Translations under genes and position numbers: made by a program
Virus record (IMG/VR): IMGVR_UViG_3300042197_001567
Location: 1-64,000 of that record
Origin: a virus
DNA length: 64,000 nucleotides
Reading direction: 5' to 3' (one strand)
The notes under the pieces: generated by a model
What the model saw: the letters and a program-made list of their open reading frames with translations, nothing else
What the model was told of the DNA's origin: nothing
Database searches by the model: none
Shown: positions 139 through 50,100 of the stretch, piece after piece
Layout: each line of letters starts with the position of its first letter
How positions within the stretch are numbered: position 1 is the stretch's first letter

Positions 139-161
139 AGGGACAATTCGTCCCTTTTTTT
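139..161 (+). terminator. Intrinsic terminator
   Basis: AGGGAC-aattc-GTCCCT hairpin followed by a T-run; abuts the stop of the minus-strand gene at 160. Confidence 0.7.
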
Positions 162-828
162 ATATATTTTCTATTTTGATTTGTTCGTCTCTATTTACAA
201 GTTTTTTGTATAATTCGATATCTGATGACCACTCTTTCCCGGTCCAGAATTCAAACCCAGAAAAATTAGATTTATATTCACAACATTTTTCGTATCCGCC
301 CATCAAATAAACATAATTTGATTTATTTTCCTGGGCGATCTTACATTCAAACATTTGTGCAACATTACCCATAGATAATTTAGAATCTTCATAGTCCCAT
401 AAAAATTGATAAGCAACCATCTGGGAGTCAAAATATTTGTATATCGAAATTGCAATTAATTTGTCCGTCCAATATTCGATTACATTACAATCTAAAAAAG
501 TTTCCAATTTTATTTCCCTTTTGAATGAGTTGTGATTACAATATTTTTCATGTAATTTTTTATATTCACCCAGATTAAAAGAAATATCACCATTTTTTAT
601 TGTTATTTTATTAGATAATCTTTTTGTTGTTTTGGATGGTTTATATTCTGTTAGATTAATTCTAGTGCTCCTTTCATTGTACCATTTTTCTTTCCAGGGT
701 ATCCATCCTGAATTTAAAATTTCAGAAATATTATCATTATCTTCTAAAAGCCCATAAGCACAATTTACAACAACTTCATAATCACTAATTTTTCCAAAAC
801 CATTAATATGGTCAAATATAACTTTCAT
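160..828 (-). CDS. Aminoacyl-tRNA--protein transferase, Bpt/ATE1-like (N-degron pathway)
   Basis: GW...STRI N-part and C-terminal SMG...YVYLMGGYEKCCEYKSNF, resembling the ATE1/Bpt C-domain (SLG...YxYLGY...YKxxF). Confidence 0.7.
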   Translation of the reverse strand: MKVIFDHINGFGKISDYEVVVNCAYGLLEDNDNISEILNSGWIPWKEKWYNERSTRINLTEYKPSKTTKRLSNKITIKNGDISFNLGEYKKLHEKYCNHNSFKREIKLETFLDCNVIEYWTDKLIAISIYKYFDSQMVAYQFLWDYEDSKLSMGNVAQMFECKIAQENKSNYVYLMGGYEKCCEYKSNFSGFEFWTGKEWSSDIELYKKLVNRDEQIKIENI

Positions 829-863
829 TTCGATAAATATTTCTCACTTCAGTATTTATTATT

Positions 864-1073
864 ATGACAGTGATCCACGAAGTACAACAAGTTTTAACTG
901 TGAATACACCTTTCGGCGAAGCTCAAGTTTTATTCATAATAGATTACGGAATTCATAGAAATTCTATATGGGTATGTTCTTCTTTTGAAGATGGTAAAAT
1001 AAGACACTTTGATACTAATCAAATAACGGTTACAATCAACCATACTTTAAATTTTAACATGAAGGATAAATAA
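864..1073 (+). CDS. Hypothetical small phage protein
   Basis: 69-aa ORF with TATTTAT motif at 853-859 and a downstream hairpin. Confidence 0.7.
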   Translation: MTVIHEVQQVLTVNTPFGEAQVLFIIDYGIHRNSIWVCSSFEDGKIRHFDTNQITVTINHTLNFNMKDK

Positions 1074-1106
1074 AAAATCCCACCATAATTAAATGATGGG
1101 ATCAAT

Positions 1107-1524
1107 TGGTGGACCTAGAGGGCTCCGACTCCCTCGTCCGGCTCGTTTTGTCAAAAAGACAACTACATGTTTAGGTTAAGATTTTTCATATCTTCCAAAA
1201 TATTTGGTTCCTATTTTGACATTGTTACCAAAAACTGTGTCGAGTTCACTTTTGTTACGGTAGCTCTCTGAACGAGACCGTTGTTTTCTTTTAGAGTAAA
1301 AACCAACTCATCTACGACTTCTGTTACTAGGTATCTGTCTGACCGACCCTCCGTTTCCGTATCTTATTAAGCTACAGTAACTTCAGAACCTCTTACTAAT
1401 CCAAGAGTTTCCATTTTGTTTAGCACATTGCCAATTATTGTTCGAATCAGTTTTTAACGAGTTTAATTCAGACCCGACATGCTTCTTTAATCCAACCAAC
1501 GCCCGTCAAATCCAATATAGGCCC
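1107..1524 (-). ncRNA. ssrA: tmRNA
   Basis: 5' GGGCCUAUAUUGGAUUUGAC; 3' UAGGUCC-A-CCA; 7-bp acceptor stem with G3:U wobble (Ala identity); T-stem GAGGG/CCCUC; internal tag ORF; 418 nt. Confidence 0.93.
1364..1432 (-). other. tmRNA tag reading frame (A)GNVLNKMETLGLVRGSEVTVA**
   Basis: AUAAUU followed by GGC resume codon, 21 codons and tandem UAA UAA. Confidence 0.75.
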
Positions 1525-1591
1525 ATATGTTTTGTACGGTGTGTTTTAAATGAACTAGTTATAAATATAAAGATAATAATATTTATTATAT

Positions 1592-2662
1592 ATGCCAAGT
1601 GAAACTTACAAATTTTTAGAAAAGTTAAGTCAGGGTGATAATTCTGAAATTAATCGATACAACTATCCGGATGAATTGATATCTGATGTTCGAGAATCTT
1701 CTAAAAATCCAAGATTAACTCAAATAATAATACAATTTGAAGATGCTGAAAAATATCTTAACCTTTTAGGTGTTGATAGTGAAGAAGATTTATGGGTTTG
1801 GAGAAAGTTTTCAGACAGTTACGGTTATGAGGAATATACCTGGGATAGATATCGTGATGATTTTTTTGAGGGATATATTTTGGAGAGTTTGAATGCGGAA
1901 AACTTAAGGTTAATTTTAAAAATAAGAAGCTTATGTCCAGTTCCTAAAACAAGAGATGAAGATCCACAACATAAACTAGAAAATTTTTTAAACGAGAGAT
2001 TTTATAATGAAGTTGATAACATAATTGCGATATATCAAACATATCATGATGAATGTATTGCAAGAGCAGTTAACGAAATAATTGAAAATGAAACTAAAAA
2101 CCCATTTCAAAAATTAGGAATTACAGAAATTTATAAAAACTATAGATTTAAAACAACTGTTGGTATCTTGCTAAATTTGTATAAAATAATAAATGGTCAA
2201 GAATTAGATTTGTTTGGACTTCTAAAAAAACTTGATGAAAAGTATAACAAATACATAGTTAGAGGCGATTGGTACGAATTGGAGTATAATAGTTGGTGTG
2301 ATGATTTTGATTCTAATAGTATGAATGATGAAATAAAAAAATATTTGAATGACATCATAGAACAACTTGAAGAAGAGAGTGAAGATAATAAGGATCTTAA
2401 AGATTTTAATGAATTATTTGAAGCCGTTTGGAAATTAGGTGGGTTTGGATGGTGGATTAACATGGCCGAAAAACAAATCGATATAAGATTTAAGGATTTA
2501 GAAAGAAATCCAACAAGACTTACATTTCATTACAAGAAACCGAACCAAAATTATATGGAAAGTGAGATTAGAAGTGTGAAAAACCTTGAGGAATTAAATA
2601 TGATGCTTTATCAAGGTGATTTATTTGAAAACGTCAAAAAAATATTAAGAAAACTTTTGTAA
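1592..2662 (+). CDS. Hypothetical protein
   Basis: 356-aa acidic ORF, TATTTAT upstream; no recognised domain. Confidence 0.75.
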   Translation: MPSETYKFLEKLSQGDNSEINRYNYPDELISDVRESSKNPRLTQIIIQFEDAEKYLNLLGVDSEEDLWVWRKFSDSYGYEEYTWDRYRDDFFEGYILESLNAENLRLILKIRSLCPVPKTRDEDPQHKLENFLNERFYNEVDNIIAIYQTYHDECIARAVNEIIENETKNPFQKLGITEIYKNYRFKTTVGILLNLYKIINGQELDLFGLLKKLDEKYNKYIVRGDWYELEYNSWCDDFDSNSMNDEIKKYLNDIIEQLEEESEDNKDLKDFNELFEAVWKLGGFGWWINMAEKQIDIRFKDLERNPTRLTFHYKKPNQNYMESEIRSVKNLEELNMMLYQGDLFENVKKILRKLL

Positions 2663-2686
2663 AAAAATAAAAGTTTCTTATCTTTG
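2656..2686 (+). promoter_or_regulatory. Bacteroidota primary-sigma promoter (-33 TTTG, -7 TAnnTTTG)
   Basis: TTTG(2656-2659)-N19-TATCTTTG(2679-2686), 4 nt before the ATG at 2691. Confidence 0.7.
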
Positions 2687-2690
2687 TTTT

Positions 2691-3476
2691 ATGGAAAGAG
2701 ATTTCGAATTATTGAAAAAGGTTTTATCGGTTCCTTCAAAAACTTACAAAGAAGATTTAATGATAGATTTTATAACAACATGGTTGGAAAAAAATAAAAT
2801 TCCTTTTTATGTTGATGAATTTTATAATATCTACGCAACAAAGAAAACAGATGAAAATATTGATTATTTTCCATGTGTTGTATCTCATACCGATACGGTT
2901 CATAATATAGATTCAATAAATGTTGTTGAGGAGATGTTGCCAAATGCTCAGAACGAAATTAAATTATCATTGAGAGCGTATAACAACGAAGGATCTCCAA
3001 CTGGAATTGGTGGTGATGATAAATGTGGTATTTTTGGATGTTTGGAATTATTGAAAGAACTTCCAAATCTAAAGGCGGCATTTTTTGTTGCGGAAGAAAC
3101 TGGATGTAAGGGTTCTTTTAATTCGGATCCTTCATTTTTTGACAACGTAGGTTATGCAATTCAATTTGATGCCCCTGAAAATAATATGATTTCAGAATTT
3201 CTTATGGGTAAACCAATGTTCAAACGAGATAGTGATTTTTTCACAATAGGATCTGAACTTCTTACAGAGCATTTCCCAAAAGATACCAAATATCACAAAC
3301 ATCCATATACGGACATCTATCCTTTGAATCAAAAATTTGGTTTATCTTGTTTTAACATATCAATTGGATATTATAATTATCATACCAGAAATGAATATGT
3401 TGTAGTTGAGGACACTTATAATGGGATCAAAGTAGGTAAACTTATGATAGAAAAATTAGGATATAATAAATATTAA
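2691..3476 (+). CDS. Zinc metallopeptidase, M20/M28/M42 clan
   Basis: SHTDTVH, GGDDKCG, EETG and C-terminal YH metal-ligand motifs. Confidence 0.85.
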   Translation: MERDFELLKKVLSVPSKTYKEDLMIDFITTWLEKNKIPFYVDEFYNIYATKKTDENIDYFPCVVSHTDTVHNIDSINVVEEMLPNAQNEIKLSLRAYNNEGSPTGIGGDDKCGIFGCLELLKELPNLKAAFFVAEETGCKGSFNSDPSFFDNVGYAIQFDAPENNMISEFLMGKPMFKRDSDFFTIGSELLTEHFPKDTKYHKHPYTDIYPLNQKFGLSCFNISIGYYNYHTRNEYVVVEDTYNGIKVGKLMIEKLGYNKY

Positions 3477-3501
3477 AAAAGGAGGTTTAATCCTCCTTTT
3501 T
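3475..3501. terminator. Bidirectional terminator between convergent peptidase and clpC
   Basis: AAAAAAGGAGG-tttaat-CCTCCTTTTT. Confidence 0.8.
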
Positions 3502-5547
3502 CTTTCTTACCCTTTTTTTAGGTTCCGGTTTAATTATCTCTTTAAGATCGACATATTCATCTTCACCATTTTTCTTAATAAATAAAATATATTCTTTTTC
3601 TTCCTCAAGTTCATTGGTTAGAATTTTTTCTGAAATCAAGTCTTCGATTTTGTCTTGAATTGCCCTTTTTATTGGTCTTGCACCATACTGATCATCAAAT
3701 CCAATTTTGGATATGTAATCAATAAGACAATCTTCATAACCAATATTATATTTCATGTTATTAACTCGAAGAATTAATTTGTCAACTTCCAATTTAACAA
3801 TCCTATTAATGTCGTCTTTTTGAAGTGAGTTAAAGATAACAACTTCATCAATTCTATTTAAAAATTCAGGTGCAAAAAACTTACTTAATTCTTTTCTCAA
3901 AACATCTCGTTTAAGTTCTTCTTCCAAGATTTCATTATTTGTTGACTTAAAACCAACACCGGTTCCAAAATCTTGTAATTTCTTAACTCCGATATTAGAA
4001 GTCATAATTATTAAACAATTTTTGAAATTAATTTTTCTACCCAGACCATCAGTCATATGACCATCGTCCAACATTTGAAGTAAAGTTGAAAATATGTCTT
4101 TATTTGCCTTTTCAATTTCGTCAAATAAAATTACAGAATATGGTTTATTTTTAACTTGTTCAGTTAATTGACCACCTTCATCGTGACCAACATATCCTGG
4201 AGGCGAACCGATTAATCTAGAAATTGTATGTTTTTCTTGGTATTCACTCATATCAACTCTAATAAGACTATCTTCACTTCCAAAAATTTCTTTTGCCAAT
4301 TGTTTTGCCAAAAATGTCTTACCTACACCAGTTGATCCCAAGAATATAAACGAACCAATGGGTCTGTTTGGATCTTTGATTCCAACTCGATTTCTTCTAA
4401 TTGCTTTCGAAATCTTCTTAACGGCTTCTGATTGACCAATAATTAATTTGTTTAAAGTATCTTCTAAACTAACTAATGAATTTTTTTCATCAAGATTTAT
4501 TTTTGACACCGGTATCTTTGTCATATTAGATACTACCTCATAAATTAAGTCTTCTGGTATTTCTCTTTTATTATTTTTTAAATCTTCTTCAAATTTATTT
4601 TTTTCAACTTCTAATTTTATATTAACAGTTTTTTCACGATCTCTCAATTCGGCGGCTAATTCATACTTTTGTTTTTTAATAACCTCGGCTTTTTCTTGTT
4701 TAATTGCAACAATTTCAGCCTTCAAAATTTCAATACTTTCTGGAAGTTTAATATCAATTTGCATTCTTGACCCAACCTCATCTAAAATATCGAAAGCTTT
4801 ATCTGGAAATTCTCTATCAGTAATATATCTATCTGCCAATTCTACAAACAACCATAATACCTCATCACTATAATGAACCATATGATGATTTTCATACTTA
4901 CCTTTACTTAATTTTAGGATTTCAAAAGTTTCACTTTTAGTTGAAGGGTCAACAATTATTTTTTGAAATCTTCTTTCTAACGCTCCGTCTTTTTCAAAAT
5001 GTTTTCTGTACTCGTCTAATGTTGTTGCCCCAATACATTGTATTTCACCCCTAGATAATGCCGGTTTGAATATGTTTGAAGCGTCTAATGAACCTGAACT
5101 ATTCCCAGCACCTACCATAGTGTGAATTTCATCGATAAAAATAATGATGTTAGGATTGGCCTGCAATTCTTCAATGATCACTTTCATCCTTTCTTCGAAT
5201 TGACCTCTATATTTTGTACCCGCAACAATAGAGTTCATTTCTAATGATACGATTCTTTTATCCGCCAAATTTTTTGGGCATTCCCCAGAATGAATCATCA
5301 TTGCAAGACCCTCAACAATTGCCGTTTTACCAGCTCCAGGTTCACCAATAATGATTGGGTTGTTTTTCTTTCTTCTAGATAAAATTTGGGCAATCCTTAT
5401 AATCTCTTTTTTTCTTCCAATTACAGGGTCTAATTTACCTTGTTCCGCAAGTTTATTAAGGTCTTTACTAAAATTATCTAACACAGGTGTTGTATTATCA
5501 CCCTTTTTTTTGTTTTTGTCTCCATCATCTGCGAATTCAATTGCCAT
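3487..5547 (-). CDS. clpC: ClpC-type Clp/Hsp100 ATPase lacking the N-terminal domain
   Basis: LDPVIGR, GEPGAGKT, IDEIH, UVR-like middle domain (KYELAAELRDRE), GSTGVGKT, LIGSPPGYVG, VGF ClpP-docking loop, GARP. Confidence 0.9.
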   Translation of the reverse strand: MAIEFADDGDKNKKKGDNTTPVLDNFSKDLNKLAEQGKLDPVIGRKKEIIRIAQILSRRKKNNPIIIGEPGAGKTAIVEGLAMMIHSGECPKNLADKRIVSLEMNSIVAGTKYRGQFEERMKVIIEELQANPNIIIFIDEIHTMVGAGNSSGSLDASNIFKPALSRGEIQCIGATTLDEYRKHFEKDGALERRFQKIIVDPSTKSETFEILKLSKGKYENHHMVHYSDEVLWLFVELADRYITDREFPDKAFDILDEVGSRMQIDIKLPESIEILKAEIVAIKQEKAEVIKKQKYELAAELRDREKTVNIKLEVEKNKFEEDLKNNKREIPEDLIYEVVSNMTKIPVSKINLDEKNSLVSLEDTLNKLIIGQSEAVKKISKAIRRNRVGIKDPNRPIGSFIFLGSTGVGKTFLAKQLAKEIFGSEDSLIRVDMSEYQEKHTISRLIGSPPGYVGHDEGGQLTEQVKNKPYSVILFDEIEKANKDIFSTLLQMLDDGHMTDGLGRKINFKNCLIIMTSNIGVKKLQDFGTGVGFKSTNNEILEEELKRDVLRKELSKFFAPEFLNRIDEVVIFNSLQKDDINRIVKLEVDKLILRVNNMKYNIGYEDCLIDYISKIGFDDQYGARPIKRAIQDKIEDLISEKILTNELEEEKEYILFIKKNGEDEYVDLKEIIKPEPKKRVRKKKED

Positions 5548-5610
5548 AATCTTTGTTTTTTGTTTTAAAATTAGTTATAATTTACATTATAGTAAACTAA
5601 AATAAAAAAG

Positions 5611-5668
5611 TGTCATAAAAACTGACAATTTGTCATGTTATATAAAATGGCACGTTTATTTATAAATA
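5611..5668. promoter_or_regulatory. Divergent clpC / UVR-dnaK control region: TGACA/TGTCA inverted repeats, TGGCACG, palindromic TATTTATAAATA
   Basis: TGTCA-N7-TGACA-ATT-TGTCA (5611-5635), TGGCACG (5648-5654), TATTTATAAATA (5657-5668). Confidence 0.45.
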
Positions 5669-5702
5669 GGTTTACACAAATAAACTTATAAAAAAAACAA
5701 AA

Positions 5703-6077
5703 ATGGATTTCGATAGTTTTGACGATTTGTTCAACAAAATGTACAATTATGTAAACACATCAAGTTTTTCAGGTAATGACTGGACCGAAAAAAAATATCA
5801 GTCGCCAGATGGAAAAATTAGCTTTACTTATTTCTCTAGAAATAATAAATTTGAGCCCACTCTAGATGAGATTGGTAAACTAAAAAACGAGTTGGACACT
5901 GCGGTTGAATCACAAGATTTTGAACGGGCAGTCGTGTTGAGGGATAGAATTAAAAGTCTGGAAAAAAATAAACAACAGATCCTTGATCTTGAGACCAAAT
6001 TAAAAGAATGTGTGAAATCACAGGATTTTGAAAAGGCAATTGAGTATAGGGATCAAATAAACAAATTAAAATCATAA
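5703..6077 (+). CDS. Tandem UVR (UvrB/C) motif protein, putative ClpC adaptor
   Basis: Two UVR motifs: [20 protein letters not shown] and [20 protein letters not shown]. Confidence 0.8.
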
Positions 6078-6079
6078 AA

Positions 6080-7939
6080 ATGGGAAAAATTATTGGTATT
6101 GATTTGGGTACTACAAATTCTTGTGTTGCCGTAATGGAAGGCAAAGAACCTGTAGTAATTACAAACAGTGAAGGGAAAAGAACAACACCATCGGTTGTTG
6201 GTTTTATTAAAGACGGGGAAAGAAAAATCGGTGACCCGGCCAAACGTCAGGCGGTTACAAACCCCAAAAAAACGATTTATTCGATCAAAAGATTTATGGG
6301 AACATCATTCACCGAATCAAAAGGTGAAATTGATAAGGTACCATATAAAATCGTAAATGAAAAAAATTCACCACGAGTTGATATCGATGGTAAAAACTTT
6401 TCACCACAAGAAATATCTGCGGCCATTCTTCAAAAAATGAAACAAACCGCAGAAGATTATTTAGGTCAAAGTGTGACTGAAGCCGTAATTACCGTTCCGG
6501 CATATTTCAATGACGCACAAAGACAAGCAACAAAAGAAGCTGGCGAAATTGCCGGTCTTACTGTGAAAAGAATTATCAATGAACCCACGGCCGCCGCTTT
6601 AGCTTACGGTCTTGATAAACAATCGAAAGACATGAAAATTGTCGTATTCGACTGTGGTGGTGGAACTCATGACGTATCAGTATTAGAATTGGGTGGTGGT
6701 GTTTTTGAAGTGTTGTCAACTGATGGTGACACACATCTTGGTGGGGATGATTTCGACCAAGCTATTATTGATTATTTGGCAAGTGAGTTCAAAAATGAAC
6801 ATGGTATGGATATTACCCAAGATCCAATCGCACTTCAACGACTGAAAGAAGCTGGTGAAAAAGCTAAAGTAGAATTATCTTCGTCTCCACAGACAGAAAT
6901 TAATTTACCTTATGTAACCGCGGACGCTTCTGGACCAAAACACCTTGTAAAAACAATTACAAAAGCCAAATTTGAACAATTGGTGGAACCTTTAATTCAA
7001 AGAACAATTAAACCATGTGAGTCGGCATTGAAAAATGCGGGTCTAAAACCAAGTGATATCGATGAAATTATTCTTGTTGGTGGATCGACACGTATTCCAG
7101 CAATACAAGATGAGGTTAAGAAGTTCTTTGGTAAAGAACCATCTAAAGGTGTTAATCCAGATGAAGTGGTTGCTTTAGGGGCTGCGATTCAAGGGGGTGT
7201 ATTGGCTGGAGATGTAACGGATGTATTATTGTTGGATGTGACTCCACTTTCTTTAGGTATTGAAACTATGGGCGGTGTATTTACAAAATTAATTCCAGCC
7301 AATACAACCATACCAACTAAAAAGTCAGAAACATTTACAACCGCATCTGATAATCAATCCACAGTGGATATTCATGTACTCCAGGGTGAGAGAGCAATGT
7401 CAAAAGATAATCGAACTATTGGTAAATTCCATTTAGATGGTCTCCCACCAGCAATGAGAGGTGTACCTCAAATTGAAGTAAGCTTTGACATTGACGCGAA
7501 TGGTATTATTCATGTGTCCGCAACAGATAAGGGTACCGGAAAATTACAATCAATTAGAATTGAATCTTCTTCTGGTTTGTCAAAAGACGAAATCGAAAAA
7601 ATGAAAATGGAGGCCGAAAAAAATGCTGAATCCGACAAGCAATTAAAGGAAGATGCTGACACATTAAATTCTGCCGACTCATTAATTTTTAGAGTTAATA
7701 AATCAATTAAAGATTTGGAAGGGAAAATTAGTGATGAAGAGAAATCAGATGTTGAGTCCTCTATTAATAAATTAAAAGAAGCGTTTGACAAAAAAGATGT
7801 TTCAGAAGTTAAGGTTTTAACTGAAGAAGTTAATCAAAAATTTCAAACAATAAGTGAAAAACTTTACGCATCTACAACCACAAACGATGATGTTACGGAT
7901 CAAGATTTTGAAAACGTTGACTACCAGGAAGTAAAATAA
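6080..7939 (+). CDS. dnaK: Chaperone DnaK (Hsp70)
   Basis: [39 protein letters not shown]; acidic C-terminus ending VDYQEVK. Confidence 0.98.
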
Positions 7940-7960
7940 TCTCCCAAGATTAAATAAATT

Positions 7961-7990
7961 AAAATCCACCTTTTTGGTGGATTTTTTTTT
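7961..7990 (+). terminator. Intrinsic terminator after dnaK
   Basis: AAAATCCACC-ttttt-GGTGGATTTTTTTTT. Confidence 0.85.
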
Positions 7991-8019
7991 ATCACTATTT
8001 ATATTATAATAAAAAAATC

Positions 8020-8265
8020 ATGGCAATTACAAAAGAAGAAATCCAGGGAACAAAAATTTTAAATGAAATTGATTCGTCTAATTTGGTTAGAACCGAATAT
8101 GATACCGAAACAAAAAAAATGATTGCGGAGTTCAAAAATGGAATGAAATATGAATATGAAGGAGTTCCACATCAAACCTACACGTCTTTTAGATCGGCAC
8201 AGTCACAAGGAAATTTCTTTAACAAGAACATATCTAAAACATTCGCGTACAAGAAAATAGGTTAA
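8020..8265 (+). CDS. KTSC domain protein
   Basis: SSNL..TEYD...EFKNG..YEY.GVP......F..A.SQG.FFNKNI pattern. Confidence 0.9.
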   Translation: MAITKEEIQGTKILNEIDSSNLVRTEYDTETKKMIAEFKNGMKYEYEGVPHQTYTSFRSAQSQGNFFNKNISKTFAYKKIG

Positions 8266-46329: not shown

Positions 46330-47030
46330 TATTTTAAACTTTTTAATTTCATAATTGCGTCAATCAATACTTCAACATCTCTCTCACAGTATTCGGCAAT
46401 TTCTTTTAATTTATTTTGTTCCCAGTAGGATTCGTGTACTTTACCACCAGTTACCTCACCATCTTTTGGTGTCGGTATATCCAAACAAGCACACATCAAA
46501 TCTAATGAACCAATTGCGGTGTATGCCCCATATTGCCAAATTTCTTTTGTGTCAATTGCCTTTACCTCCCATGGTTTAGTATCGTAAGACGGAAGTATTT
46601 TAGATGGCATAATTCCATTTACAATCATACGTTTTGCTAACATAGGAATGTCAAAGTTTTTTAAATTATGACCGCAAAGGTAAAAGTCTAACTTATGACA
46701 ACGATTTAATAAATCTCGAACATCGGTTAACAATTTAACTTCGTCATCACCAGAAAACGTTTGTTTTTTTACTTCACCATTATCTAAAACAAATGCCATT
46801 GACACACAAACAATTTTTGCAAACTCCGGAACTAATGCGGTTCGTTTTGCGAAAATCTGATCTAATGAAAGTTGCGAATCTTCAGGAAATCTTTTTTGAA
46901 ACCAGTCGATATATTTAATGAATTGATCCGCCACTTTTGGATTACTGGTTTTACATGTTTCATAGTCCCTACAACCACCAACAGTTTCAATATCCAAAAA
47001 TAAAATTTTTGTTAAAGGTATATTTATCAT
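46329..47030 (-). CDS. DnaQ-like 3'-5' exonuclease (PolB exo-like)
   Basis: DIETV, GHN.KNFDIP, YCERDV. Confidence 0.9.
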   Translation of the reverse strand: MINIPLTKILFLDIETVGGCRDYETCKTSNPKVADQFIKYIDWFQKRFPEDSQLSLDQIFAKRTALVPEFAKIVCVSMAFVLDNGEVKKQTFSGDDEVKLLTDVRDLLNRCHKLDFYLCGHNLKNFDIPMLAKRMIVNGIMPSKILPSYDTKPWEVKAIDTKEIWQYGAYTAIGSLDLMCACLDIPTPKDGEVTGGKVHESYWEQNKLKEIAEYCERDVEVLIDAIMKLKSLK

Positions 47031-47863
47031 TATTTGTTTTTTAGTTTATCGATTATTTCCCACCCTTTGTTTTTACCATATGCTTTTAAAGTTGTGGTGC
47101 TAACAGACAATTTATTTTTTTTTACATGTTCAATAAATGAAGTATAACCCAAAAATTTTAAAATGTCATTAGATGGTGTTTTAATTACCCAAATAATTTT
47201 TCTAGAGTGAGATTGTTTTTCCACCGATTCCTTGCTCCTTTTCTTACCTAATCTAGATAAAGACATTTGTATTTTTCGTTCATCAGTATATTTTTTACCT
47301 TTGTTAGGTGATACTTGTCCTTTTTTTTTATCTGAAATTTTTTTCTTGGATTCATTAGACATTGGTTTTTTTTTTATACCTTTTAGTGACTCACTAATTT
47401 TTTTTCTTGTGTTGTCATTTATAATTCTACCTTTAGACACTTCTCTAATTTTTTTTCTAAAACCTTCAGACATTTTTAGACCTTTATTCCAACCACCGAT
47501 ATTTCTATTTTGATTTTTTGCGGTTTGAGACATTTTAATTTTACTTTCTTTGGTGTGTTTTTTTCCTAACATAGGGGATCCGCCGTCACCACCTGAAGTT
47601 AAATTAACTAAATTAAATCCCCAACATTTCATTTGATAAATCCAATATGACTCAATTTCATTTGATATGTCATCATCACAGATATCTAATATTTCCATAA
47701 CAATTTTTCTGTTATTTAATAAAACATTATTAATCCACTTTTCTTTATAAGTTTTTTTGTGTTTACTCTCATTGATGTGTGAGTGATATCTTTTGACGGT
47801 AAATTTTGTTTTACCAACATAACGGATTTTTTCTCCGTCGCTTAATGTGTAAATATAAGTCAT
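47030..47863 (-). mobile_element. Free-standing GIY-YIG homing endonuclease with NUMOD3 repeats
   Basis: YIY.L.....IRYVGKT, R..SH, E.YWI, N.T.GGDG, repeated H(T/S).E.K.KMS. Confidence 0.85.
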
Positions 47864-47891: not shown

Positions 47892-49139
47892 TTACTTAAC
47901 TAAACTCAAATAAAAATCAGCTCTTGTTTTAGTGACCAAATTAAGATCATATCTATCTTTTACGGTTTCATACAATCTTTCTCCAAGATCTGTAATCATA
48001 TTTGGATTTTCAACCAATTTTTTAATCGATTTGAACCAATCGCTGTGATTTCTTGTCTCATCAACTAATAGTGCGTTTCCATCAGTAAACTGACCATTTT
48101 TAAGTGCGTGTTTTAAATCAATTGTATATGGACCAACGTTTGATGCGATTAATGCTTTTTTATAAAAGCCAGCCTCAATTACTTTTAATTGTGATTTCAT
48201 TCGATTAAATACATGATTTTTAATTGGTGCTAATGAAATATCAAATTTAGAATAATTTTTAGCATAGCTTGTAACCGGTCTTGTCCATACTCTAACATAA
48301 TTTTCATTCTCAACACCAAGGTAATCGTTCTCAATAAAAGTATCTAAATAATTTTTATACTTTTCTGAAATTATTTTGTAATTATCAGTAAAAATCTGTT
48401 CGTATTTAACCCAAACGGTTTCTTCAGGTCTAATTGGTCTTTGTGTTTTTTCACCAGTTTGTCTATTGATTTCAGTAACTTGTCCTCTAATGTCAAATCC
48501 ACAAACATAATACTGTAACTTATTTTGGTAGTTTGACAACTTTGGGACCAATCCGTCTAAAAGTTTTAAATCATGTAGGTGAGAAGATCCTCCTAACCAA
48601 CCAACTCTAATTTTTTCGGATGGTAGTGTTGGTTCACAAAACTGCGGGTCTTTTGGATCAACAGCATTAGGTAAAACAAAAACATTTTTATTAAATTTTC
48701 TAATTTCATTTGCAAACAATTCTGTGGTTGTCGTAACATAATCACAAACTTTAAGATTTGCCATAATTTTCTCGTGCAATTTGTTTGACACGATTAACTG
48801 ATGAATTGGATGTTCTTTTGTTGGTAACCAATAATCATCAATATCTCCAATTACAACAATACCTAATGACCGTAATGATTTAATTAAATTTGGTGTGTTA
48901 TCGTAATCTGAACCTATGGTTCTGTGAAAATGTACAATCTGATATTTTTTCCAGTAATTTATATCGTTAATTCTTGGCGAATAATCAATATCAACATGAA
49001 ACTCGTCTGGAAAAAGATTTTGTAATTTAACGTGGGGGTCAACTGAACGGAATTTACCTCAGCCAACCCCCGACTGGTCACTTGGAAGAACCAATACTCT
49101 GATTCTTTCACGACCATTCAAGGGGTTATTTTGTGTCAT
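47892..49139 (-). CDS. GT-B (GT4-like) glycosyltransferase; full frame from ATG 49139 interrupted by one in-frame TGA (codon 27, 49059-49061)
   Basis: MTQNN...RIRVLVLPSDQSGVG*GKFRSVDPH...DIDDYW...RVGWLGGSSH..DL...LAP....FN..KSQLKVIEAG; otherwise open for 416 codons. Confidence 0.85.
49034..49071 (-). other. GC-rich mRNA hairpin containing the in-frame UGA (candidate recoding signal)
   Basis: GGGGGUUGGCUGA pairs with UCAGUUGACCCCC (13 bp, 3 G:U); inner loop GGUAAAUUCCGU. Confidence 0.7.
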
Positions 49140-50040
49140 ATTTTTTAATTAGTTTATTTATTATAGTTCGATCCGAAATATAATCCGATTCCCAAACTAC
49201 TTCTAAATTATAACCATTATTTAAAATTATGTCAACTTTGTTTCTATCATATTCCCAAAGTTTTTCGGCCGTCATACCTTTTACTTGGTGAAAATAGTCT
49301 TTATTGTACTTGTTTGGGTTACAGTGCCAATAATCACCATTATACTCTATTATCAAATTTAATTTAGGTAAAAATATATCACAAATTTTTGTATCAACTC
49401 TGTGAGAATGTTTTACACTATACCCAAGTTTTTTTATTTCATTTATTATTTCTTTTTCTGTTTTTGATCTGTTAATTGATTTTAATTTACCTAGTCTTCT
49501 TGTTTCATTCATTTTTTCAGACATTATTTTTTTAACGTGATCTAATTCACCACTATCCCATTTTTGTTTAAGATTTTTTCTTGCCTTTTCTTTCCACATT
49601 TTGTTTGACATAGAATTTTTATTACCAGTCGCCTTTCCTTTTCTATTTTCAGATATTTGTTTTTTTGTTTCTTCTGAATGTTTTTTATTATAAAATGGGT
49701 TATTATTTCCTTTCATATTTTCAGATAAACAACTTTTACAAACTGAATTTTTATTTTCTGAATTAAAATAGTTTCTACATGTTGTTACTTGAGTTTTTGT
49801 TGTAATTAATATTATTTTTTCACATCTCGGACATTTTCTTTCAGTTACATACTTCCCATTTATTAGTTTTATCTCAATAGATTTACATCTATTTCTTTTT
49901 CTAACAACTTTGTTATCATTCAGTATTTTTAAAATAGTTGGTTTAGAAACATTAAATTCTTCGGCAATTTGTATCGAATTTCTTCCTTGTAAATATTTTT
50001 TGATGATTAACTTTTCGTCCAGATTGATCTTTTTACCCAT
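49126..50040 (-). mobile_element. Free-standing homing endonuclease, Vsr-like (EDxHD/DUF559-type) with HTH, Zn ribbon and NUMOD3 (start revised to 50040)
   Basis: IAEEFNVS..TI HTH; CPRC/CKSC; NPFYNKKHSEETKKQIS; DIF.PKLNLIIEYNGDYWH; VWESD. Confidence 0.8.
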
Positions 50041-50100
50041 AACATTTTTTATTATAAATACACCGTAAATGTCAATAGGCAACATTAACAATAGAAAATA

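Follow-up and report, generated by a model that had tools for sequence, protein, structure and literature searches.

How could a gene whose reading frame is broken by a stop after 26 codons still provide a phage with one full-length enzyme? The question is raised by a glycosyltransferase (GT) gene in a 64,000-nt stretch of viral DNA (hereafter the window; positions 1 to 64,000 of IMG/VR virus record IMGVR_UViG_3300042197_001567). The record is a 91-kb contig of 31% G+C whose completeness is estimated at 28%, and the contig therefore comes from a jumbo phage. The gene, which encodes a GT4-like enzyme of the GT-B fold, lies on the minus strand (47892..49139) and comprises 413 sense codons plus a 6-nt coding gap: a 416-codon frame runs from an ATG at 49139 to a TAA at 47894-47892, and its only internal stop is a TGA at 49061-49059 (codon 27). 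Two glycine codons flank this stop, GGC for Gly26 (49064-49062) and GGT (49058-49056), the latter followed by AAA (49055-49053), and the local sequence reads TCG GGG GTT GGC TGA GGT AAA TTC CGT TCA GTT GAC CCC CAC. The original prediction, drawn from the letters without database searches, had described this interrupted frame correctly. It had also pointed out that the list of open reading frames (ORFs) starts the gene 116 codons late, which is indeed the case: the frame is listed from GTG 48791, so that the transferase begins at residue 117, an example of how gene callers will truncate such genes. Its central proposal was that peptidyl-tRNA-Gly hops 6 nt from GGC to GGU and thereby restores GVGKFR. 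Every comparative test that it had suggested supports this proposal, and we consider it highly probable that the gene is read by way of a programmed +6 peptidyl-tRNA-Gly hop that is carried by a homing-endonuclease cassette.

According to this model, the ribosome would arrive with GGC (Gly26), the take-off codon, in the P site and UGA in the A site. The UGA, proposed here to be slow to decode, would let the peptidyl-tRNA-Gly unpair from GGC; the mRNA would slide by 6 nt, the tRNA would re-pair with GGU, the landing codon, and decoding would resume at AAA. Such a hop would yield the canonical ...PSDQSGVG-KFRSVDPH... loop that connects strand beta-1 to helix alpha-1 of a GT-B enzyme, and the tryptic junction peptide would be ...VLVLPSDQSGVGK. 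The gap itself would have been brought in by a Vsr-like/NUMOD3 endonuclease inserted just upstream of the GT, with which it would still be travelling, and, by analogy with T4 MobA, it probably disrupts the recognition site of that endonuclease, within a motif so conserved that substitutions could not do this.

A protein-guided scan of IMG/VR recovered 80 loci with 66-86% identity to the GT, which together with the window's own make 81 alleles. The interrupted motif GVG*GKFR is shared by 12 of the 80, and the other 68 read GVG-KFR(S) and are shorter by exactly two codons (6 nt), the form that the original prediction had expected of uninterrupted alleles. Equally uninterrupted and two residues shorter is a 35%-identical homologue in a 735-kb megaphage; the loop of the relatives is GVG-KFR/YYR. 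Further scans left the inserted codon unconstrained (NNN) and covered IMG/VR completely, plus a metagenome collection. With these, the gap-bearing GT contigs numbered 32 in IMG/VR and ~77 in the metagenomes (~110 in all), corresponding to 72 unique alleles, and the recurrence of the 6-nt insert for which the original prediction had asked is thus borne out. The presence of the same break in so many contigs excludes an assembly error. All ~110 contigs have TGA (about two thirds) or TAA as the inserted codon of the 6-nt gap. No sense codon occupied the insert in any GT gene of the NNN scans, where the remaining pattern matches were unrelated sequences, and homologues with two extra sense residues at this site, which had been named as a sign of a simple nonsense mutation, were not found. 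Synonymous sites on the flanks are near saturation (pS 0.63-0.69) while the inserted codon stays TGA or TAA. Judging from these alleles, the stop is selectively maintained.

The site of the break is a sensitive one. The GT product matches PHROG 7162 'glycosyltransferase' (E = 1e-44) and, below the cut-off only, Pfam Glyco_trans_1_4; a sequence search of the PDB with the GT profile gave no match. An AlphaFold model of a stop-less homologue (pLDDT 88.7) shows the GT-B fold, with two Rossmann-like domains and a Gly-rich beta-1/alpha-1 loop, and its closest Foldseek matches were MshA, PglA, BshA and PimA, with E down to 6.5e-12. In this model strand beta-1 (residues 4-9) is followed directly by GVG, which caps the N-terminus of helix alpha-1 (residues 15-31), and G15, G17, R20, S21, P24 and H25 are invariant across 33 homologues. 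A two-residue insertion at the GVG site is fixed in none of the homologues seen, and from the model it would be expected to hurt the enzyme when placed at this N-cap.

These observations bear on stop readthrough, in which a near-cognate or suppressor tRNA would read the UGA as Trp, Cys, Arg or selenocysteine to give GVG-X-G-KFR. In its favour, no bacterial stop is leakier than UGA, a 6-nt gap keeps the frame, and the stop is invariably followed by a Gly codon, which means that the insert could be translated. However, about a third of the alleles have UAA, two extra residues at the N-cap occur in no homologue, and no allele has a sense codon in place of the stop, a change that would yield an identical product in full amount; that UGA and UAA interconvert but never become sense over saturated synonymous divergence is the opposite of what readthrough predicts. 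Nor is the hairpin described below like a selenocysteine insertion sequence (SECIS) of the fdhF type, because its loop directly follows the UGA; the apical loop of a SECIS lies about 16-37 nt downstream of the UGA.

Readthrough is further challenged by gaps of other lengths at the same site. One allele has a 5-nt gap, GGT-TAGGT-AAA (L368), in which the UAG overlaps the landing GGT; others have an 11-nt gap, GGT-TAACTAAAGGT-AAA (L366, L367 and L370), or a 13-nt gap, GGC-TGAATTTAAAGGA-AAA (L373 and L375-L377). In these alleles a GT body of 313-387 codons is open in the landing frame, and since the 5-, 11- and 13-nt gaps are out of frame, readthrough cannot express them; only bypassing joins the frames. 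The selenocysteine or Trp readthrough that the original prediction had kept as an alternative fits neither these gaps nor the TAA alleles, and we regard readthrough as quite unlikely. Longer gaps (17-46 nt) with a GGGG core were absent from IMG/VR. Two further features of the longer versions may be recorded: a small hairpin (for example with pairing like UGAAUUUA...UAAAUUUAGG; roughly -9 to -10 kcal/mol) has the stop and gap bases of the 11- and 13-nt gaps as its 5' arm, and UAAA precedes the landing codon in both.

All versions of the gap (5, 6, 11 and 13 nt) obey the same codon rules, with a stop directly after GGY and GGN directly before AAA at the end. Gap-bearing alleles have GGC or GGT as their take-off codon without exception (25 of 25 in one allele set and 59 of 59 unique alleles in another), whereas stop-less alleles use GGA, GGG, GGT and GGC at this position. 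The take-off codon is followed by a stop in all gap alleles, and the landing codon is always GGN directly 5' of AAA or AAG; among the 59 unique alleles it is GGT in 47, GGC in 7 and GGA in 5. Because GGY therefore stands at both positions in most alleles (54 of 59), one tRNA-Gly(GCC) can read most of the pairs. A stop after GGY combined with GGN before AAA has every appearance of the signature of peptidyl-tRNA take-off and landing. Related phages have tRNA-Gly(UCC) as the only tRNA-Gly of their arrays, which makes the host the probable source of the hopping tRNA.

No tRNA or transfer-messenger RNA was found by ARAGORN in the window (the block at 160-8265 included), and no tRNA in the 91-kb contig. 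Arrays of three relatives (L138, L139 and L140) hold 22-25 tRNAs for all 20 amino acids, with U34 anticodons in four-codon boxes. No suppressor tRNA, a further prerequisite of one form of readthrough, occurs among the 24-25 tRNAs (all 20 amino acids) of two stop-bearing relatives, in a survey whose contigs are only 28-51% complete. In one array, that of the stop-bearing relative G003 (L139 3903-3977, minus strand), ARAGORN reports a 'tRNA-???' with a two-base anticodon, whose anticodon stem is UCGGC/GCCGA and whose 6-nt loop is ACACAA; it is missing from the arrays of G002, which is stop-bearing, and G005, which is stop-less, and therefore shows no correlation with the gap.

An alternative genetic code, with UGA reassigned in phage or host (code 4 or 25), would make the stop a sense codon, and the AT-richness of the host speaks in its favour. 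Against this stand a single in-frame TGA in 416 codons, the terminal stops of 73 long ORFs in the contig (58 TAA, 12 TGA and 3 TAG), the use of TGA as the true terminator of the GT itself in stop-bearing L045 and L070, and the existence of TAA and TAG versions of the gap. A comparison of ORF counts under reassigned stops was uninformative. We consider a reassigned code exceedingly unlikely.

If the stop were simply disabling the gene, selection should be relaxed beyond it, as the original prediction had stated. No such relaxation was seen. Pairwise dN/dS in the gene body is 0.128 between stop alleles, 0.147 between stop-less alleles and 0.141 in mixed pairs. Five sister pairs of a stop and a stop-less allele were polarised with outgroups for counts on terminal branches: the stop-allele branches carry 101 synonymous and 39 non-synonymous changes (N/S 0.39), the stop-less sister branches 126 and 45 (N/S 0.36), with a neutral expectation of ~4.1 (Fisher p = 0.80). 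No second disruption occurs in any of the 13 stop alleles of the first set, nor in any further stop allele with a complete gene in its locus. The sister stop alleles L146 and L149, which share a cassette, differ by 38 synonymous and 8 non-synonymous changes (omega 0.043), having diverged with the gap in place. Because lateral transfer could make recently invaded genes look intact, the test was extended to the codons carried along by the cassette. Omega is 0.11 (pS 0.63) for the 15 core codons that precede the stop (K/R-I-R-V-L-V-L-P-S-D-x-x-G-V-G) and 0.075 (pS 0.69) for the 10 codons that follow the landing site; the serine codons seen in the cassette-borne GT stretch are AGC, AGT, TCT, TCA and TCG. 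With omega at ~0.1 on both sides of the stop, both sides must be translated into constrained protein. Purifying selection is, on these measures, alike in stop-bearing and stop-less lineages, and the gene is alive.

Inactivation of a dispensable GT by a selfish cassette, the gene bodies being intact only because the invasions are recent, would be in keeping with the lateral movement of the cassettes (see below) and with the close stop-less sister that most stop alleles have. The similar N/S ratios, far below neutrality, the lack of second disruptions, the divergence of L146 and L149, the constraint on cassette-borne codons at saturated pS and the intact genes that persist even where the endonuclease has already decayed all speak against it. 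The recent inactivating insertion that the original prediction had listed does not fit these selection data, and we hold it to be very unlikely.

Downstream re-initiation after termination, or a split enzyme made of a 26-residue peptide and an N-terminally truncated transferase, would bring two short products from the same frame. Many stop alleles do have an in-frame AUG ~10 codons downstream (..DPHVMLQN..), and leaders in these phages are A-rich and lack Shine-Dalgarno (SD) sequences. Yet the window allele and several others read HVKLQN or HIKLQN and offer no start codon ahead of residue 117; strong purifying selection (omega 0.075) acts on the ten codons that separate the landing site from the Met of the other alleles, and the truncated protein would be without strand beta-1 and the Gly loop. 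There is, in our view, very little chance that this route accounts for the locus. As to initiation in general, an SD-like motif was found upstream of none of the 73 long ORFs in the contig, whose leaders are A/T-rich, which hints at a host that initiates without SD pairing, such as a member of the Bacteroidota. A GGGG two bases before the take-off codon was considered as an SD-like signal, as in prfB frameshifting, and was dropped as unlikely given the lack of SD-like motifs and the presence of GGA, in place of GGG, throughout one clade.

The 6 nt might also be removed at the level of nucleic acid, by replication or transcription slippage between the GGY...GGT repeats, by RNA editing or by splicing. 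Short direct repeats (GGT TGA GGT) do flank the gap in some alleles; they do not exceed 2-3 nt, a homopolymer run on which transcription could slip is absent, and more than 100 assemblies keep the gap. We know of no 6-nt intron, and such a removal appears highly improbable.

Given the evidence for a hop, which signals could promote it? The original prediction had singled out a hairpin at the take-off site (49034..49071, minus strand), and its 13-bp stem, GGGGGUUGGCUGA/UCAGUUGACCCCC (49071-49059 with 49046-49034), in which G-GGG-GTT-GGC-TGA pairs with TCA-GTT-GAC-CCC-C, was confirmed in the window and in the TGA clade. The stem is the minimum-energy fold of the surrounding 81 nt (-29 kcal/mol, z = -3.3, with 0 of 200 shuffles as stable) and places the take-off codon and the stop in its 5' arm and the landing codon in its loop. 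RNAalifold and pair counts gave 87.7% of cells paired, with one compensatory pair (C-G to U-A). Of the 45 TGA alleles, 43 have the hairpin, whereas most TAA alleles have a weak one or none: the median fold energy for a 48-nt stretch at the site is -21.3 kcal/mol for TGA alleles, -7.9 for TAA alleles and -6.1 for stop-less alleles. Since TAA alleles fold no better than stop-less ones, the idea of the hairpin as a universal stimulator was rejected, and the original prediction needs correcting on this point. The hairpin may compensate for something specific to the TGA clade, and would not be essential to the phenomenon.

Two other features were found ahead of the take-off site. The first is an N-terminal extension, MTQNNPLNGRER (49104..49139, minus strand), which is confined to gap-bearing alleles and is a candidate nascent-peptide signal. 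All 72 unique stop alleles have M-x(3-7)-P-x-[ND]-[GVH]-R-x-[RK] ahead of I-[RK]-V-L; the extension is 11-14 residues long, and P-x-[ND]-[GVH]-R-x-[RK] keeps a fixed spacing of 14-20 residues before the take-off Gly, whereas stop-less alleles lack the extension and start M(E)KINVLV. At take-off the motif would lie in the exit tunnel, the place where the nascent-peptide signal of T4 gene 60 acts. The second is an upstream (5') stem-loop, GAAAGAAUCAG/UAUUGGUUCUUCC (49084..49109, minus strand), in which codons of the extension pair with codons of strand beta-1. It has 9 pairs, with 94.8% of cells paired by RNAalifold and pair counts, and alignment columns 48-57 hold C-G (10), U-A (3) and A-U (2) at synonymous positions. 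The fold energy of its region is -10.6 kcal/mol for TGA, -7.4 for TAA and -0.7 for stop-less alleles, a contrast that is confounded by G+C content and to which we attach little weight because the stop-less stretch is AT-rich leader sequence. The P-site hop itself and its efficiency are inferred, as are stimulatory roles for the extension, the 5' stem-loop and the hairpin.

The gap has a travelling companion. Immediately upstream lies a gene for a free-standing homing endonuclease (49126..50091, minus strand) with a helix-turn-helix (HTH), a zinc-finger-like CxxC, a NUMOD3/I-TevI-like DNA-binding region and a C-terminal Vsr-like nuclease, whose stop overlaps the GT start by 14 nt. Among Pfam models, NUMOD3 exceeds its cut-off, and MTES_1575 and HTH_7 stay below theirs; the match to Vsr TIGR00632 covers profile positions 1-119 (E = 1.9e-5, below cut-off), and that to the I-TevI DNA-binding domain 1i3j has E = 2.5e-5. 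An endonuclease or its remnant stands upstream of 12 of 13 stop alleles as against 3 of 68 stop-less alleles in the set of 81. In sister pairs of a stop and a stop-less allele, both flanks are 90-100% identical, and the divergent block in between begins where the upstream 196-aa gene ends and stops 30-47 nt after the GGG codon, a little past the hairpin. Such well-supported pairs occur throughout the maximum-likelihood tree of the GT body, in which stop alleles are scattered (9 changes) and no more clustered than shuffled labels. In the window, the mobile cassette spans approximately 49025..50100 (minus strand) and comprises the endonuclease, the extension, the first 26 GT codons, the gap and the hairpin. 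Among 25 unique stop alleles, endonuclease homologues are intact upstream of 17 and reduced to fragments or missing in the other 8, which still keep the extension and the gap; the 11-nt-gap alleles also lack the endonuclease. Pairwise identity of the endonucleases ranges from 40 to 94%, which marks them as an old family. By these sequence comparisons, gap, extension and endonuclease are one laterally moving cassette, and the gap is old, conserved and cassette-linked. If the analogy with MobA holds, the endonuclease would cleave alleles that lack the gap, and the gap would protect against it.

Several points weigh against a programmed hop of this kind. The case rests wholly on comparative genomics. 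Low-level readthrough would also give full-length protein from the in-frame 6-nt gap taken alone, and for that gap readthrough is excluded only by argument, namely that the codon is never sense, and by the out-of-frame relatives. The five unique alleles with a GGA landing codon, like the 13-nt-gap alleles, combine it with a GGY take-off codon, which for tRNA-Gly(GCC) means a wobble mismatch. Conservation of the hairpin does not extend to the TAA clade, and the three stop-less alleles that have an endonuclease homologue upstream (L005, L038 and L060) depart from the linkage of gap and nuclease. Finally, synthetic stop-hops are inefficient, at about 1%.

The nearest natural counterpart is the 50-nt bypass of T4 gene 60, which is part of the MobA homing-endonuclease element and whose gap blocks nicking of the carrier genome by MobA (Huang 1988 and Bonocora 2011, as cited and extended in Manning & Atkins, bioRxiv 10.1101/2022.08.31.505936). 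That element shows lateral spread, a 'hit and run' course in which the bypass is kept after loss of the endonuclease, and replacement by other nucleases (10.1101/2022.08.31.505936). The GT cassette agrees with this picture on each point. The two also share a Gly take-off codon directly followed by a stop, a Gly landing codon directly 5' of the codon at which decoding resumes, a stem-loop (in the GT, strong in the window and the TGA clade) whose 5' arm holds the take-off codon together with the stop, a further stem-loop upstream, and a cassette-encoded N-terminal extension ahead of take-off. Likewise, a free-standing homing-endonuclease cassette has invaded a motif of high conservation and has the gap at its 3' edge, the gap outlasts decay of the endonuclease, and the cassette has spread laterally over the tree of its host gene. 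The differences are no less clear. Here the gap is 6 nt (5-13 nt in relatives) instead of 50 nt, too short to hold an internal SD-like element or a barrier to forward slippage; the host is an undivided gene, for a glycosyltransferase in place of a topoisomerase; the nuclease is Vsr-like/NUMOD3, not HNH; and these phages show no use of SD sequences. The GT cassette has no sequence homology to the gene 60 cassette, and its endonuclease matches NUMOD3, Vsr and I-TevI models, not HNH. It is a miniature analogue of the T4 mobA/gene 60 cassette, not a member of it.

In E. coli, constructs in which a stop stands between matched codons have given synthetic stop-hops (Weiss, Dunn, Atkins & Gesteland 1987; reviewed in PMC5009743), and the 2016 review says of in-frame stop hopping in nature that 'no occurences are known', synthetic constructs only (PMC5009743). 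Text searches of the literature found no later report of a natural stop-hop. The GT site shares with these constructs the matched codons around a stop, 9 nt that specify one amino acid and a +6 shift in frame; unlike these low-efficiency laboratory constructs, it is natural, is conserved over saturated synonymous divergence and is accompanied by conserved peptide and RNA features. The mitochondrial 'byp' elements of Magnusiomyces capitatus are short mobile inserts in essential coding sequence that are bypassed (10.1101/2022.08.31.505936), and they have in common with the GT gap the translational bypass of a mobile insert and a wobble tolerance between take-off and landing codons; in contrast to it, they are 27-55 nt long and GC-cluster-like, have an A-site sense codon lacking a tRNA and come with no endonuclease gene. 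As in group I introns and inteins with homing endonucleases, a selfish endonuclease here alters or occupies a conserved site without destroying the host gene, but for the GT gap the correction would fall to the ribosome instead of RNA or protein splicing, and the endonuclease has its gene outside the ORF.

Whether the GT gap belongs to a natural family of short programmed hops (5-13 nt) used by free-standing homing endonucleases is, to our mind, an evenly balanced question. The portable signals of such a family would be a cassette-encoded nascent peptide, an upstream stem-loop and the stop, with no SD element, and the family would add to introns and inteins a third strategy by which these endonucleases alter their own target sites in invariant motifs. 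The GT cassette itself would extend the logic of MobA and gene 60, whereby a selfish nuclease renders its target immune through an insert that does not show in translation, to a different nuclease family, a different gene and a different phage group, one that appears not to use SD pairing. Natural bypassing is known from very few systems, T4 gene 60 with its homologues and the Magnusiomyces byps; should the hop prove efficient, it would be a minimal model system for bypassing as well as the first stop-hop from nature. The alleles at this one codon (no gap; gaps of 5, 6, 11 and 13 nt; three stops; with and without the hairpin; endonuclease intact or decayed) form a ready mutational series for asking what minimal signals ribosome hopping needs.

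Some loci add variations on the cassette. In the stop-less alleles L038 (2255-3020) and L060 (2258-3020), the endonuclease homologues have an internal deletion of ~50 residues, and the Gly loops are changed by substitution (GVGRYRS and GCGKFRS); these may be cases of substitution-based escape from cleavage, or decayed cassettes without their gap. At L100 6635-7550, on the same contig as L070, an unrelated 304-aa ORF and, after it, 431 nt of non-coding sequence stand in place of the usual endonuclease, and the stop-bearing allele keeps its extension and gap. The window also holds a second free-standing homing endonuclease (GIY-YIG plus NUMOD3; 47030-47863, minus strand), between the GT and a 3'-5' exonuclease gene. 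Across the 81 loci a GIY-YIG homologue occupies that position only in L038, which makes it another mobile insertion of the presence/absence kind.

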